Counted from the first letter of the stretch, positions 6,293 through 59,075 are shown. The stretch is 64,000 nucleotides of DNA from Eledone cirrhosa (GCA_964016885.1 OZ024741.1:100812001-100876000), one strand, 5' to 3'. Program-made: numbers and translations. Notes: generated by a model from the letters alone, not told the origin.

Positions 6293-6337
6293 AACGATGT
6301 ACTAGTTTCAAGCTTGTTAGCTATCATCAGCACCGTT
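6293..6337 (-). ncRNA. Minimal type I hammerhead ribozyme
   Basis: Minus strand reads aacggtg CTGATGA t-agct-aaca-agct-t GAAA ctag TA catcgtt: 7-bp stem I, intact core, palindromic stem III, UA cleavage site. Confidence 0.88.
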
Positions 6338-6370
6338 TACCCATCTGCCAGATAGTTGAACGTTCGAAAG

Positions 6371-6418
6371 TATATACTTTCCTTATGAAAATTAACGGCT
6401 GAGCAGCCTAATTTGCAT
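6371..6418 (-). promoter_or_regulatory. Candidate octamer + TATA promoter module upstream of the hammerhead
   Basis: ATGCAAAT (6418-6411), 34 bp, TATATA (6376-6371). Same spacing at 34811 and 58339. Confidence 0.5.
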
Positions 6419-6977
6419 ATTGAGTGAGTTAAATCGGTCAGGCATACCGAAAACGATAAATTGAAACAAAATGAAAACGAAATTTCATTTCTGACTCTTA
6501 GTATGGCACTTACTTAAATGTAAGTATGCATGTATACATACATACATATATGTATACAGACGTACAGTAGCATGCACATATATATATATATACACATACA
6601 CATGCATACAGGTACACATACATATATGCACGTATCAGTTTAGCGGCGCTTATTAATATATATACATATATATATATATATATATACATATATATATATA
6701 TACATATATATATATACATATATATATATATATATATACATATATATATATATATATATACATATATATATATACATATATATATATATATATATACATA
6801 TATATATATATACATACATATATATATACATACATATATATACATATATACATACATATATATATACATACATATATATATACATACATATATATATACA
6901 TACATATATATATATATATATATACATACATACATATATATATATATACATACATACATATATATATATATATATAC

Positions 6978-7577
6978 ATGGTGGCTGCCAACTCGTTTTC
7001 GAGTACGGCCACTACTTTATATCCATGTAGGAGAACCCCTACCGAAGCGCTGAACGAGTGTGACTTTTTAGTCCAGCCAGCGACTTGAAAACTCTGGTAC
7101 AAACACTACACTTGTGACAATTATTGACACATAGTGCTGGGCCCATGGTACCATGTGACGACAAGTGCAGAGAGATCTCCAGATATAAAGCAATGCCTGT
7201 GCCGTGAAGCTTTTATAGTGAGCAAAGGCACTGCACAAAGCCAGTCCCACTCTCTTAACCAAGATGATATTTACCAAAAAGAAGAACAAGTCAACATCAT
7301 TGGCTACCATCAGGGTTGCAGGTGTTATATCAGAGTTTTCCTTCTCCTAGAATTCTGCCTTGACAAAGGCTAAGGGGTCATCTCTCCCGGTGATTTTGGA
7401 TGGCCATTGACTCTTAAAAGCTCCTTTGCCCTTTGACAGGTTTTGTTTTTAGTCCTGCAGGATGTCCAAAGTCACCCTCCTCACCAAGAAACCTTGGTGG
7501 GGTTGCCAGTTTAGTCGCCAACGACCCGACCATGAGACAGGTTGTACTGGGATACATGTTACCAGTAGCACCAACTG
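6978..7577 (-). mobile_element. Probable RTE-type LINE 5' UTR fragment
   Basis: Minus strand contains tctaggagaaggaaaactctgat, which I recognise from RTE 5' regions. It is a GC-richer island between (TA)n tracts. Confidence 0.5.
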
Positions 7578-10311
7578 TATGTATATATATGTATGTATAT
7601 ATATATGTATATATATATATATGTATATATATACATACATATATATATACATACATATATATATATACATACATGTATGTATATATATATACATATATAT
7701 ATATACATACATGTATGTATATATATATATACATATATATATATACATATATATATACATATATATATATACATATATATATATATATATATATACATAT
7801 ATACATATATATATATATATACATATATATATATATATATATATATATATATATACATATATACATATATATATATATATACATATATATATATATATAT
7901 ATATATATATATATACATATATATATATACATATATATATATATATACATATATATATATACATATATATATATATACATATATACATATATATATATAT
8001 ATACATATATATATATATATACATATATATATATACATATATATATATATACATATATACATATATATATATATATACATATATATATATATATATATAT
8101 ATATATATATATATACATATATACATATATATATATATATACATATATATATATATATATATATATATATATATATACATATATACATATATATATATAT
8201 ATACATATATATATATATATATATATACATATATACATATATATATATATATATATATACATATACATATATATACATATATACATATATATATATATAT
8301 ATATATATACATATACATATATATATATATACATATATATATATACATATATATATATATATACATATACATATATATATATACATATATATATATATAT
8401 ACATATACATATATATATATACATATATACATATATATATACATATATATATATATATATACATATATACATATATATATACATATATATACATATATAT
8501 ATATACATATACATATATACATATATATATACATATATATATATATATATATATATATATATATATATATATATATACATATATATATACATATATATAT
8601 ATATACATATATATATATATATATATATATATATATATATATACATATATATATATATATATATATATATACATATATATATACATATATATATATATAT
8701 ATATATATATATATATATATATATACATATATATATACATATATATATATATATATATATATATACATATATATATACATATATATATATATATATATAT
8801 ATATATTATATATATATATATATATATATATATATATACATATATATATATATATATATACATATATACATATATATATATACATATATATATATACATA
8901 TATACATATATATATACATATATATATATATATATATATACATATATACATACATATATACATATATATATACATATATACATATATATATACATATATA
9001 TATACATATATATATATACATATATATATATACATATATATATACATATATACATATATATATACATATATACATATATATATACATATATATATATATA
9101 TACATATATATATATATATATATATATATATATATACATATATATATATATATATATACATATATATATATATACATATATATATATATATACATATATA
9201 TATATATACATATATATATATATATACATATATATATATATATATATATATATATATACATATATATATATATACATATATATATATATATACATATATA
9301 TATATATATATATATATATATATATATATACATATATATATACATATATATATATACATATATATATATACATATATATATATATATATACATATATATA
9401 TATACATATATATATATATACATATATATATACATATATATATACATACATATATATATATATACATATATATATATACATATATATATATATACATATA
9501 TATATACATATATATATATATACATATATATATACATATATATATATATATATATACATATATATATATACATATATATATACATATATATATATATATA
9601 TATATATACATATATATATACATATATATATATACATATATATATACATATATATATACATATATATATATACATATATATATATATACATATATATATA
9701 CATATATATATATACATATATATATATATATATATATACATATATATATACATATATATATATACATATATATACATATATATATACATATATATATATA
9801 CATATATATATATGCATATATATACATATATATATACATATATATATATACATATATATATATGCATATATACATATATATATATACATATATATATATA
9901 CATATATATATATGCATATATACATATATATATATGCATATATATATATATATACATATATATATATACATATATATATATACATATATATATATACATA
10001 TATATACATATATATATACATATATATACATATATATATACATATATATATACATATATATACATATATATATATACATATACATATATACATATATATA
10101 CATATATACATATACATATATACATATATACATATATACATATATACATATACACATATATACATATACACATATATACATATACATATATACATATATA
10201 TACATATACATATATACATATATACATATATACATATATGTATATATATATATATATATATATATATATATATATACATATATACATATATATATACATA
10301 TATATATATAT
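7578..10311. repeat. (TA)n/TACA microsatellite, ~2.7 kb
   Basis: Seen directly. Confidence 0.98.
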
Positions 10312-10439
10312 AATATAAGATCAAAAGATGGTTAAAGGAGTTCCATATATTTTATTATTATTATTATCAAACTGTAGAGTGCTTCTTATCCGATATCTGC
10401 ATTGCTTTATTGTACTACAATAAAACTCACCTCCTACAT

Positions 10440-56706: not shown

Positions 56707-56815
56707 CCCTTGGATATAATAATGCTTTCTTTATTTGCCCTTGGATATAATAATGCTTTCTTTATTTGCCCTTGGATATAATAATGCTTTCTTTATTTGC
56801 CCTTGGATATAATAA
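56707..56815. repeat. 31-bp tandem repeat x3.5
   Basis: gcccttggatataataatgctttctttattt. Confidence 0.9.
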
Positions 56816-58338
56816 TAACAACTAAAAGTTATCAATAAAATTTTGAACAATTAATCCAAAATGTAGTCAAATCATGATTAATATTTATTTTAGGTATTAA
56901 TAGAGCCAATCAAGGTCAGATATGACTGCTAGTTTTTAAATACATTGACTTGGCTTTGTTGTGCTGTGAGAATTGTCATGACAATTTACTTAAAAACAAA
57001 ATATTAAAACACCCAAGAAAATGTTGTTAACGTTCAACAACAATCACAATCATCATCATCATCATCATCATTTAACATCCACCATTTTCAATGTTAGCAT
57101 GGGTAGGACAGGTTGTCTCTTTGTGAGAGATCAGGTTGGAGGACCATATTTCGCTCACACAGAATTGATTTGGGCTTGGTTTCTACGGCTGGATGCTCTT
57201 CTTAATGCAAACCACATTTACAGTGTGTGCTGGGTGCTTTTTGTCGTGACACTGACACGACCACCTTAAAGTGTGGGCTTGGTACTTTTTGTTGTGTCAC
57301 CAACACAACCACTTTACGGGCACTTTTTGTTGTGACATCTACATGACCACTTTACAGTATGGACTAGGTACTTTTTGTCAGGTCACCAACACAACCACTT
57401 TACAGTGTGGACTGGGCGCTTTTTGTCATGACACCTACATGACCACTTTACATTTCAAAATATTTTTAATGAGAAAAAGAGTTTATATTTTTATCATTTT
57501 TCATGAGATTAAGAAGTTTAAACAATTGCAGTTAACAATATGTATTTAACAATGTGAAGCACATAATGATGATTAAAGAAATTGGTTTTCATAGTAACTA
57601 AAATGGAAACTTATAAATTGAGCCAGTGTCCACTGCTTTTAAATGAGATTTATCTTTAGAAGCTTAAAATATTTTATGGTTTGTATTTTAGTCTCTTGAC
57701 ATCATCAAAGATTAGATCACATTTGGTGTCATATATATATATATATATGTCTGTATTCATGAGAAAGAGGCTTCATCGAAATGTTTTTACTATAAAAAAC
57801 TAGTTTTAATGGTTTAACCCTTTAGCATTCACATTATTTTATATATACTATTATATTTTCATGGTAAAGGCTTTACCTCACATAATTATCTCACATAATA
57901 TCGAATCTATGAGATTTTGAAAGTATTTATTTTGAGAACAATACCTTAACATCAGTTTGAGCGACCAGTTACAGCCAGAGGTAGAGAATTCTGGCCAGTT
58001 TTGGCCGGTTTGAACATTAAAGGGTTAATAATAGTGTATATAATCCGCCTTAACAGGAAAAAAATGGACATCAGCAGGTGCTAATGCCCATTTATATACA
58101 CCATCATCATCACCATTCAATGTCCATTTTTTCACACTAGCATGGGTTATATATATGTGTGTGTGTGTGTGCTGGACACCACTAGAGGGCGTTAGCTCCG
58201 GTGTTTGCATAGCCATGGCTTCCTAAAACCGTATTTCTTTAGAAATACAAAATTTCTATCCAAATTGTATAGAGCTATGCTTGAAGCGAAATCTTATTTC
58301 TTTTCTATTACAAGTTGAGACAACTTATGCAGCTTCAT

Positions 58339-58387
58339 ATGCAAATGAGATTAATCACCTCATTTACACAGACGAGAAAACTATATA
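58339..58387 (+). promoter_or_regulatory. Candidate octamer + TATA promoter module
   Basis: ATGCAAAT 58339-46, 35 bp, TATATA 58382-87. Confidence 0.5.
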
Positions 58388-58431
58388 TTCTCGACTGTTT
58401 TCAAGTCCAGCAGTAGCAAGCGGTGGGAGGG

Positions 58432-58475
58432 ACTGTCCTGACGAAGGCCAGTCAAGCCCGAAATGCATAGATGGT
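58432..58475 (+). ncRNA. Minimal type I hammerhead ribozyme
   Basis: actgtc CTGACGA a-ggc-cagtcaa-gcc-c GAAA tgca TA gatggt, enclosed by gtccagcagtagcaag / cttgcttctgctggac. Confidence 0.85.
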
Positions 58476-59075
58476 TGTACCCCTTGCTTCTGCTGGACAC
58501 CACCAGAGGGCGTTAGCTTCCGGTTCAGTCCCAATTTGTGGCACCTTGAGCAAGTGTCTTTCATTATAGCTTTCTGTTCACCACTACTCAGTTAAGAAAA
58601 TTTGTTAGACAGAGACTATGCAGAAAACTGACGCATATACGTCTGTGTGCATATTTTTTTTTGTTTTGTTTATGTCCCACAACTTAGCAGTTCAAAGAAC
58701 AGAGATCAATAAGATAAGTAAATATGATTGATTAAAAACTTTTAAGGTGATGCACTATCATGCCCGCAGTCTAATGACAGAAAACAGGAAGAGAATAAAA
58801 GAATATATATACATATATATATATATATATATATATATATATATATATAAAAGGTATAGTACCAGGAAAAACAAATGACTGCAATGACCATGTTGAGAAA
58901 AATACTTTGGTAAGCAATTTTCCATATTTGTTTGTTTGCACATTGATTCACACAAACAAATTTTAACCTGACATATTATCATATATATATATATATATAT
59001 ATGTGTGTGTGTGTGTGTGCCCCGGCATGGCCTCAGCCGGATAGCTGGAACTGGTAAAAGAGTATATATATATAT

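Follow-up and report, generated by a model that had tools for sequence, protein, structure and literature searches.

Metazoan non-LTR retrozymes have been described by Cervera and de la Pena 2020 (PMC7229834) and by Li, Clavereau and Pollet 2026 (bioRxiv 10.64898/2026.07.22.740005). According to the part of a 2020 review available to us, retrozymes seem to be promoterless (PMC7761336). The accessible text of the 2026 preprint mentions neither a promoter nor an octamer nor snRNA; molluscs are absent from its stated sample, and cephalopods are mentioned neither there nor in the accessible text of PMC7229834. Our literature searches returned no description of a promoter like the snRNA-type block reported here in mollusc retrozymes. 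Circular retrozyme RNAs rank with the most abundant RNAs of those animals that have been tested, and the reviewed default for their transcription is read-through.

Newt satellite 2 was reportedly studied by Cremisi in 1992 and by Coats, Zhang and Epstein in 1994, and its promoter is said to have an octamer and a PSE. The Sm-alpha and Sj-alpha repeats of Schistosoma have an internal, tRNA-derived promoter. As described in the accessible portions of the literature, satellite 2 is a tandem hammerhead repeat of ~330 bp with an internal snRNA-type promoter that drives Pol II (PMC2220036, PMC6765202). The Schistosoma repeats are SINE-like, with the promoter followed by the hammerhead; only tandems of at least two units propagate, because cleavage leaves the promoter at the RNA's 3' end (PMC6765202, accessible portion).

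We analysed a stretch of 64,000 nucleotides (the window) from Eledone cirrhosa (GCA_964016885.1, OZ024741.1:100812001-100876000). Three small elements in it, E1, E2 and E3, are confirmed as copies of three families belonging to one old superfamily of non-LTR retrozymes. This bears out the original prediction of a ribozyme retroelement family: the families are of high copy number and show Penelope-like insertion marks. The octamer, TCA(G/C)C motif, TATA and stem proposed for each element were found in place, with octamer-to-TATA gaps of 34, 34 and 35 in E1, E2 and E3.

The E1 insert (6052..6655, minus strand) consists of a ~466-bp monomer followed by ~140 bp that partially repeat it in tandem, has TA microsatellites on both sides, and carries one promoter-like block and one hammerhead. 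The block (6371..6418) comprises the octamer with TAG (6418-6408, the octamer word being 6418-6411), TCAGC (6402-6398) and TATATA (6376-6371). Outer stem and type I hammerhead occupy 6283..6351, with the stem running from 6351 and the core at 6330-6306; there is a U.U at the base of helix II, helix III is minimal and palindromic, and cleavage is predicted after 6300 (GUA). Extrapolation from host snRNA geometry would place the start at 6346 (C/A junction, TATA+30).

The E2 insert (34745..35006, plus strand) is a 262-bp part of a ~333-bp monomer, flanked by TA microsatellites. Its block (34811..34858) comprises the octamer with GAG (34811-34821), TCAGC (34827-34831) and TATAAG (34853-34858), with a predicted start at 34883 (C/A). 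Outer stem and hammerhead (34873..34972) enclose a U3-A8 core (34905-34929); helix III and the cut site, expected after 34942, are decayed in this copy.

The E3 insert (58170..58524, plus strand) holds one 321-bp monomer plus 34 bp. The block (58339..58387) comprises the octamer with GAG (58339-58349), TCACC (58355-58359) and TATATA (58382-58387), with a predicted start at 58412 (C/A). Outer stem and type I hammerhead occupy 58405..58498 (core 58438-58463); a palindromic tetraloop caps the one-pair helix III, and cleavage is predicted after 58469 (AUA). The predicted starts of E1 and E3 fall inside the ranges proposed originally (~6352-6346 and ~58405-58412).

Direct repeats of 464/468 bp in E1 (a TA-run distinguishes its two parts) and of 321 bp in E3 (27/28 nt) support the proposed structure of a monomer plus a partial repeat for these two elements, E2 being less than one monomer. 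A general repeat search of the window gave output swamped by microsatellites. Relative to dinucleotide shuffles, the stems have z-scores of -6.4 (E2), -3.2 (E3) and only -1.9 (E1); the E1 stem was matched in quality by 9 of 200 such shuffles.

The octamer-TATA-hammerhead core pattern has 27,942 matches in the genome against 2 for the reversed pattern, a count dominated by few families and arrays; other copies are abundant, as the original prediction required. A pattern blind to the octamer gave 24,909 matches against 248 in the control, and in its first 30 loci, which are mostly E1, an exact octamer stands at gap 34-35 in 21 and an octamer with at most one mismatch in 23. Octamer and TATA by themselves have 5 matches in the window (shuffle mean 2.45; at least 5 in 8/100 shuffles). 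This is not beyond chance in so AT-rich a window, whereas the full arrangement is, by the genome census.

Clustering of 75 sampled elements resulted in 28 clusters at 70% identity and 11 at 60%. All families except those of the window were found by patterns containing the octamer or TATA, so that promoterless relatives would escape this census. E1 is a young family with top copies 91-99% identical and tandem arrays elsewhere in the genome, E2 is older (80-89%), and E3 has at least 3,113 candidates at first look (89-94%). Arrays reach ~30 units in E4, a further family, and 2-10 units in E1; E2 and E3 were seen as partial tandems only. Although the window elements had been considered not obviously alignable, weak alignment exists between E2 and E3 (~79% over ~50 nt of promoter) and between E1 and E4 (75% over 65 nt). 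As in retrozymes, the monomers are tandem, of low GC and devoid of ORF or LTR, the ~466 bp of E1 being slightly above the ~150-450 bp range. No recurrent foreign sequence, such as a LINE at the start site, was seen in the first 100 of 334 E1 copies with a disturbed TATA-to-core stretch. Contigs of four runs of unrecorded type, aligned to E1, revealed nothing about starts or circles.

Core, helices I and II and a NUH site define a type I hammerhead in E1, in E3 and in the majority of the E2 family, which has a U3-A8 core, a helix III of 4-5 bp and a GUC site. The reading of two intact ribozymes and one decayed is therefore correct for the window copies but not for the E2 family, most of which is intact. 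Core positions 3 and 8 covary (CG 49, TA 15, CA 7, TG 4; n=75), with a Fisher p of 2e-7 that is uncorrected for relatedness of the elements; within the E3 family, the alignment is too uniform to show covariation. A strict helix descriptor was passed by 25/75 elements, compared to 0.14 in shuffles. With Rfam, the best score for E1 was 18.5 bits to HH9 (cut-off 52), E3 had no hammerhead match, and scans of the window returned miRNA noise from microsatellites and no hammerhead over the cut-off.

Spacing within the block is constant across families of a mere 41-57% identity. The gap between octamer and TATA is 34-35 in 57/75 elements, although 32-41 was permitted, and YCASY, a motif outside the search pattern, begins exactly 16 nt past the octamer start in 48/75. 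It lies 25-28 nt before TATA in 41/75 (shuffle mean 2, maximum 7); the TCAG(C) word itself stands 26-27 nt before TATA. A C/A junction occurs at TATA+29/30 in 41/75 elements and T/G in 1/75. The monomer thus contains, as originally proposed, a promoter-like block of snRNA type, built of words that host snRNA promoters also use.

Among host genes, octamer-KAG at -76 to -79 is combined with TATA at -30/-31 in three distinct U6 genes, U6atac, MRP and two tRNA-Sec genes. Of the nine distinct type 3 promoters examined, these seven carry the octamer and the two candidates for 7SK and RNase P lack it; it was likewise absent within 300 bp of all 13 U1/U2/U5 promoters. In this genome, the octamer belongs to the Pol III class. 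The Pol II snRNA class instead has YCAGT at -55 to -58 (13/13 U1/U2/U5 promoters), about 25-28 nt ahead of a TATA-like box, and an element containing TCCCTT further out, near -260, and lacks a proximal octamer, whereas the octamer of the elements is proximal. Pol II snRNA genes start at Y/A, the seven octamer-bearing Pol III genes at T/G. No host gene with the combination found in the elements was seen among U6, U6atac, MRP, tRNA-Sec, 7SK, RNase P, SRP, U1, U2 and U5, the genes compared as possible promoter donors.

Alternatively, a U6-class gene could have supplied the block as a compact Pol III promoter of type 3, and Pol III would then produce short stem-hammerhead RNAs or read through T4 runs; the octamer-KAG word of the block, confined to Pol III promoters among the host genes examined, and its clear TATA box fit this, as does the lack of any run above T4 in E1 and E3 monomers. 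T5+ runs follow soon after the ribozyme in 20/75 elements from 11 clusters (T5-T9 in some old clusters) and could serve as Pol III terminators. However, the octamer is 4-5 bp closer to TATA than in the host, where the gap is 38-40 in 7/7 octamer-bearing Pol III promoters, a value reached by only 3/75 elements. A plain U6/H1-type promoter, as the original prediction had it, is not supported. TCAG is 32-33 nt before TATA in the candidates for 7SK and RNase P rather than 26-27, the start is C/A rather than T/G, and Pol III would not get past the T5 runs inside E2 (20/30 copies) and E4 monomers. We consider such a Pol III promoter unlikely.

In the position of the TCAG word and in its C/A start, the block agrees with the Pol II snRNA promoters of the host, and our best guess is that it acts as an snRNA-type promoter more likely used by Pol II than by Pol III. 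The resemblance concerns position rather than full sequence: the fifth base is mostly C (TCAGC) in the elements versus T (TCAGT) in host Pol II genes, and scores with the host Pol II weight matrix are low, at 0.6, -7.6 and -6.1 bits for the window copies, with a peak at offset 26-28 in only 15/28 clusters.

The same words might instead serve the circle as a hairpin in its RNA or as a site bound by protein, or be an inherited relic, with the RNA arising by read-through from neighbouring genes, which is the published default (PMC7761336, accessible part). The octamer-TCAG stretch does fold into a hairpin in each of E1-E4 (-7.6 to -11.3 kcal/mol), and the C/A may be kept for structure, since the stem base is also where the start is predicted. 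Yet the register of the hairpin varies among families, two-sided compensatory pairs formed no run in it, host promoters of the U6 type, which are never transcribed, fold equally well (-2.4 to -12.9), and a hairpin would fix neither host-identical words nor the distances to TATA and start. An RNA-level role or relic therefore seems improbable to us, and a promoter remains our preferred reading.

As in Penelope-like elements (PLEs), copies terminate next to TA microsatellites and frequently have 5' pieces in inverted orientation. Inverted pieces were found at 16/32 E3, 14/24 E1, 12/33 E2 and 3/8 E4 loci, and a microsatellite at the 3' end at 21/32, 17/24, 14/33 and 5/8 loci, respectively (controls 16/192, 33/112, 21/188 and 1/41). 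The 3' ends concentrate at sites rich in A and T, and not one lay at the ribozyme cut site among the loci analysed. PLEs are abundant in the genome, with 10,596 GIY-YIG candidates; our comparison took in 42 of these GIY-YIG loci, with two PLE loci as queries. Pfam did not recognise two partial ORFs, which we take to be of PLE origin from RT and GIY-YIG motifs in their translations.

Insertion anatomy and targets shared with PLEs would also be expected if the units were pLTR fragments of an autonomous PLE and the block that element's promoter. In Xenopus, 24/57 retrozyme families are homologous to known repeats, nearly all of them PLE ends (bioRxiv 10.64898/2026.07.22.740005, accessible text), and a Neptune-like PLE of the Eledone cirrhosa genome also has a U3-A8 hammerhead. 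Against this, PLE protein matches occur at just 15/197 retrozyme loci, with family, strand and distance mixed, and no unit was contiguous with an RT/GIY-YIG ORF as a terminal repeat in the sampled loci. The octamer is absent from the six hammerheads downstream of 30 GIY-YIG loci and from terminal-repeat hammerheads among 12 long-ORF loci, all 30 RF00163 loci fetched are a different family without the octamer block, and arrays of ~30 pure monomers exist. The units are not simple pLTRs of the sampled PLEs, and a pLTR origin appears highly improbable; no sequence common to retrozymes and a sampled PLE identified the partner.

We consider it probable that the octamer-TCAG-TATA block of this old superfamily of non-LTR retrozymes acts as an snRNA-type promoter, Pol II being the likelier polymerase. 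The arrays would then be transcribed and cut by their predicted ribozymes into monomers, which would likely be circularised and likely be pasted back by PLE-type enzymes. Transcription would begin 30 nt past TATA, where the outer stem has its base and immediately upstream of the first hammerhead, and the polymerase would pass through the next unit, so that the promoter DNA itself would be copied into RNA as the monomer's 3' portion. The monomer would be excised by two hammerheads, possibly singly in E2 and as a dimer in E1 and E3 with their minimal, palindromic helix III. A host ligase, as in the literature, would close the circle. Judging from the insertion anatomy, a PLE RT/GIY-YIG enzyme would prime where the circle or multimer is AT-rich, using a nicked (TA)n target, and copy 0.8 to 30 rounds. 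With the promoter inside the copied unit, an upstream promoter, usually lost in retrotransposition, would travel with the element.

New source loci would be only those inserts with a promoter and two hammerheads, which were found at 12/24 E1 and 5/8 E4 loci (young arrays) and at none of 33 E2 and 32 E3 loci. From their sequence, tandem copies likely start their own transcription. The window copies cannot release a monomer because each has a single hammerhead, downstream of the promoter, and ends 55-250 nt past the cut; the idea that inserts of a monomer plus a partial repeat re-express themselves is therefore not supported.

A built-in snRNA-type promoter, if true, would explain constitutive expression, arrays as sole source loci and the survival of an upstream promoter through retrotransposition; self-started transcription would contrast with the prior view of retrozymes as mostly unable to do this. 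The spacing difference of 4-5 bp is a natural experiment on the choice between Pol II and Pol III, the block offers a small candidate promoter for expressing circular RNA in a mollusc, and its geometry yields exact start-site predictions. The host comparison defines the snRNA promoter grammar of the Eledone cirrhosa genome. More tentatively, animal non-LTR retrozymes may generally not be promoterless and may constitute a SINE-like class with a captured snRNA promoter, retained because in a circular or multimeric RNA the promoter DNA is part of what gets copied. Here, this promoter would be a chimera of Pol III octamer and Pol II spacing, in no host gene examined and kept in at least 11 deep lineages.

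As far as the accessible portions of the sources allow comparison, the elements share with metazoan non-LTR retrozymes AT-rich non-coding monomers of 300-470 bp with one type I hammerhead each, dispersed and tandem copies, and coexistence with PLEs; the one-pair helix III with palindromic tetraloop of E3 resembles the description of axolotl Amex1, and the U.U at helix II of E1 that of Amex2. They differ in having a conserved promoter-like block of host snRNA words. With PLEs (PMC4209133, bioRxiv 10.1101/2021.04.23.441226, in part), they share partial tandems, inverted 5'-truncated pieces, microsatellite targets, a palindromic helix III, the U3-A8 core variant and the placement of a promoter, putative in our elements, in the upstream repeat; unlike PLEs, they have no ORF and a longer outer stem, and the octamer block is absent from sampled PLE terminal repeats. 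The plant retrozyme NbRZ1 (PMC12029980, PMC9695139, in part) has its own promoter, but is an LTR element with a type III hammerhead and an LTR promoter. In Sm-alpha/Sj-alpha, the promoter likewise precedes the hammerhead; it is a Pol III promoter there and an upstream snRNA-type block here. Newt satellite 2, as far as described in the accessible texts, is likewise a tandem hammerhead repeat with an snRNA-type promoter inside, and as a published precedent it speaks against the new class originally proposed. Unlike that repeat from another phylum, the Eledone elements combine TATA and a Pol III-class octamer with a Pol II-spaced core, in a block kept across at least 11 deep lineages.

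The motifs of the original prediction were re-located in the three hammerhead elements of the window, E1 (6052..6655, minus strand), E2 (34745..35006, plus strand) and E3 (58170..58524, plus strand). Each has the octamer at the predicted place, a TCA(G/C)C word 8 nt past it, and TATA at an octamer-to-TATA distance (gap) of 34 bp (E1, E2) or 35 bp (E3). The stem begins 25, 20 and 23 nt from the TATA start in E1, E2 and E3, with z-scores of -1.9, -6.4 and -3.2, respectively, and the type I hammerhead core lies inside each element as claimed. Taken by themselves, octamer and TATA do not exceed chance expectation within the window (5 matches vs. 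a shuffle mean of 2.45), and the elements score under the cut-off of the Rfam hammerhead models.

Each element is a member of a dispersed family in its own 3.0 Gb genome, with at least 3,113 (E3), 179 (E1) and 746 (E2) candidate copies at first look. A genome-wide search for octamer-KAG and TATA followed by a hammerhead core returned 27,942 matches, compared to 2 with the reversed pattern; these are not independent events, and E1 and a fourth family, E4, dominate among the matches listed. E4 monomers measure 461-469 bp and occur in arrays, one with about 30 and one with about 14 units. A pattern variant without E1, E3 and E4 returned 758 matches (reversed control: 1). An octamer-blind pattern (TATA, CAG, core) returned 24,909 (control: 248); among 30 such loci inspected, 21 have the exact octamer at a gap of 34-35 and 2 more have it with one mismatch, the remaining ones being truncated, shifted or chance matches. 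In copies picked by BLAST and not by motif, octamer and TATA are intact at the right gap in 23/30 (E3), 23/30 (E1) and 18/30 (E2).

For further comparison, 75 elements were assembled: the 758-match search supplied 30 loci and 38 more (the latter chosen by eye for diversity among its first 100 rows), the 27,942-match search supplied 4, and the window its 3 copies. Grouping at 70% identity gives 28 clusters, and at 60% identity 11. Cluster representatives are 41-57% identical across 270 nt, and the families thus constitute one old superfamily, in which octamer, TCAG(C) word and TATA make up a block upstream of the hammerhead. An inverted-repeat fragment at window positions 1700-1950 (81-85% to L186, L370 and L399) is a further member, of which the 3' part only is present, without promoter or ribozyme.

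A strict helix descriptor is passed by 25 of the 75 elements (shuffle mean 0.14) and failed by 50, a failure rate which old copies would be expected to give. Helix III is minimal and palindromic in E1 and E3, a configuration described as requiring dimers (PMC4209133, PMC7229834). The hammerhead of E2 had been considered decayed, which holds for the window copy but not for the family, the majority of which has an intact hammerhead with U3-A8 replacing C3-G8, a helix III of 4-5 bp and a GUC site. U3-A8 is a published covariation (PMC4209133). Core positions 3/8 are CG in 49, TA in 15, CA in 7 and TG in 4 of the 75 elements, the pattern permitting all four and related copies being counted separately.

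The block had been interpreted as a U6/H1-type Pol III promoter. In the host, ATGCWAAT-KAG is found at -76 to -78 in 12/20 U6 loci (3 distinct promoters); the octamer has been moved by an insertion in 6/20 (array copies) and is not nearby in 2/20. In the six array copies (L097, L098, L100-L103), an insertion of ~190 bp at the TATA box shifts the octamer to -270. The octamer is at -77 to -79 in MRP, in the two top tRNA-Sec genes and in the best U6atac locus (the one used out of six, the other five looking promoterless). As TATA is at -30/-31 in octamer-bearing host Pol III promoters, their gap is 38-40. In the 7SK candidate (45 bits) and in RNase P, TCAGT stands 32-33 nt ahead of TATA and the octamer is missing; four SRP promoters have neither the octamer nor the TCAGT word. 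YCAGT is present at -55 to -58 in all 13 U1/U2/U5 promoters (distinct ones chosen out of 57 loci); each of them also has a TATA-like, AT-rich box around -30, and none carries an octamer within 300 bp. The start is Y|A in host Pol II genes and T|G in the octamer-bearing Pol III genes. Across host loci L091-L110, L111-L123, L163, L164 and L230-L289, the octamer is at -77 in most type 3 Pol III genes, a distal TCCCTT element near -260 is common to snRNA promoters, and AAWCAGA occurs downstream of Pol II snRNA gene ends.

The gap of the elements is 34-35 in 57/75 and 38-40 in 3/75. YCASY, which was outside the search pattern, follows the octamer start by exactly 16 nt in 48/75 elements and is 25-28 nt ahead of TATA in 41/75 (13 clusters; shuffles: mean 2, maximum 7). 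At TATA+29/30, 41 of the 75 elements have C|A and one has T|G. Gap and start thus differ from those of octamer-bearing host Pol III genes, and the U6/H1-type assignment is not supported as stated. Because octamer-KAG is as in host Pol III genes whereas YCASY position and C|A start are as in Pol II genes, the block is best described as a putative hybrid: an octamer of the Pol III class with core position and start of the Pol II class. Insect Pol II and Pol III classes differ by 4 bp in spacing. In insects, the same SNAPc element is used by both polymerases, small differences being decisive (PMC1761439).

Judged from these sequence features, the block is probably a working snRNA-type promoter. 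We lean towards Pol II and consider transcription by Pol III rather unlikely. Three features speak against Pol II: the fifth base of the element word, mostly C and not T as in host Pol II YCAGT; the host Pol II matrix, which peaks at the right offset in 15/28 clusters and gives low scores for the window copies; and the T5+ runs soon after the ribozyme in 20/75 elements. In favour of Pol II, monomer production needs read-through of the entire unit, and T5 runs, equal in length to the shortest host Pol III terminators, are present within the monomers of E2 and E4. The octamer-TCAG stretch of E1-E4 is also predicted to fold, and might be a hairpin rather than a working promoter; yet the hairpin register varies among E1-E4, and host U6-type promoter DNA likewise folds.

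Besides a promoter, release of a monomer needs two hammerheads. This combination was found in 12/24 E1 and 5/8 E4 loci, but in none of 33 E2 or 32 E3 loci, nor in the three window copies. The latter, which had been proposed to re-express themselves as greater-than-unit inserts, are thus dead ends. The best candidates for active source loci are the young E4 arrays at L156-L158, whose units are near-identical; each array includes an inverted 5' piece and is bordered by TA tracts on either side.

Insertion anatomy was surveyed in 97 loci (32 E3, 24 E1, 33 E2, 8 E4; most copies of one C14 E1 array excluded). Inverted 5' pieces occur in 16/32 E3, 14/24 E1, 12/33 E2 and 3/8 E4 loci, and a microsatellite adjoins the 3' end in 21/32, 17/24, 14/33 and 5/8, compared to 8%, 29%, 11% and 2% at control positions. 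The 3' ends are concentrated at few AT-rich sites per monomer (four ends being the edge of the stretch analysed), none of the 97 loci ending at the ribozyme cut site; the clustering is partly by construction in BLAST-picked loci, and 24 pattern-picked loci agree. Such anatomy is described for Penelope-like elements (PLEs; bioRxiv 10.1101/2021.04.23.441226). Because of this PLE-like anatomy and the 3' ends away from the cut site, we infer a circular or multimeric template, not a cut linear monomer.

PLE protein matches were found in 15/197 retrozyme loci, with strand and distance not fixed, and in 2/100 host-gene loci, a proximity that would be compatible with a shared target. The octamer is absent from the six hammerheads downstream of 30 GIY-YIG loci, from the terminal-repeat hammerheads among 12 long-ORF PLE loci, and from 30 RF00163 loci, all of one other family. 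The units are thus not plain terminal repeats (pLTRs) of the PLEs sampled, in line with the prediction. They might be pLTRs of a PLE partner outside this octamer-free sample, a pLTR origin having been argued for Xenopus retrozymes (Li et al. 2026, bioRxiv 10.64898/2026.07.22.740005).

L390 (G000:C1:145869500-145877500, minus) is an apparently complete Neptune-like PLE; its 938-codon open frame is flanked by two direct terminal repeats, each with an octamer-free U3-A8 hammerhead and palindromic helix III, and a TA tract is at the end. Window region 59930-60200 has an inverted pair of PLE-type minimal hammerheads (cores 60102, plus, and 60058, minus), with a third copy at 31723 (minus). This family, with a long helix II, a TATA loop and an octamer-free upstream region, differs from the retrozyme superfamily; in L088 and L158, its repeat lies next to the 3' ends of retrozymes. 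Window 34330-34720, inserted in the same TA tract as E2, belongs to a GIY-YIG element, of which it is the 3' untranslated/terminal part (78-83% to L386, L375, L376 and L388), and 11064-11375 is a PLE GIY-YIG domain fragment (39%, E 6e-15). Window 3700-4100 (minus) resembles the coding region of a non-LTR retrotransposon, similar sequence following the PLE in L394. A partial tRNA-like match over the Rfam cut-off (61423-61476, minus, 44.6 bits) is probably a tRNA-derived repeat or pseudogene.

The features of the elements agree with those of non-LTR retrozymes (PMC7229834). According to a 2020 review, retrozymes seem promoterless (PMC7761336), and promoters are unmentioned in the portion of the Li et al. 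preprint consulted. The literature searched contains no molluscan description of such a promoter; subscription journals, repeat databases or supplements may contain one. The sequences indicate that the observation of retrozymes with a promoter-like block is real, and it has precedents in newt satellite 2, with an snRNA-type promoter used by Pol II (cited in PMC2220036, PMC6765202), and in schistosome hammerhead repeats, with a Pol III promoter (cited in PMC6765202).
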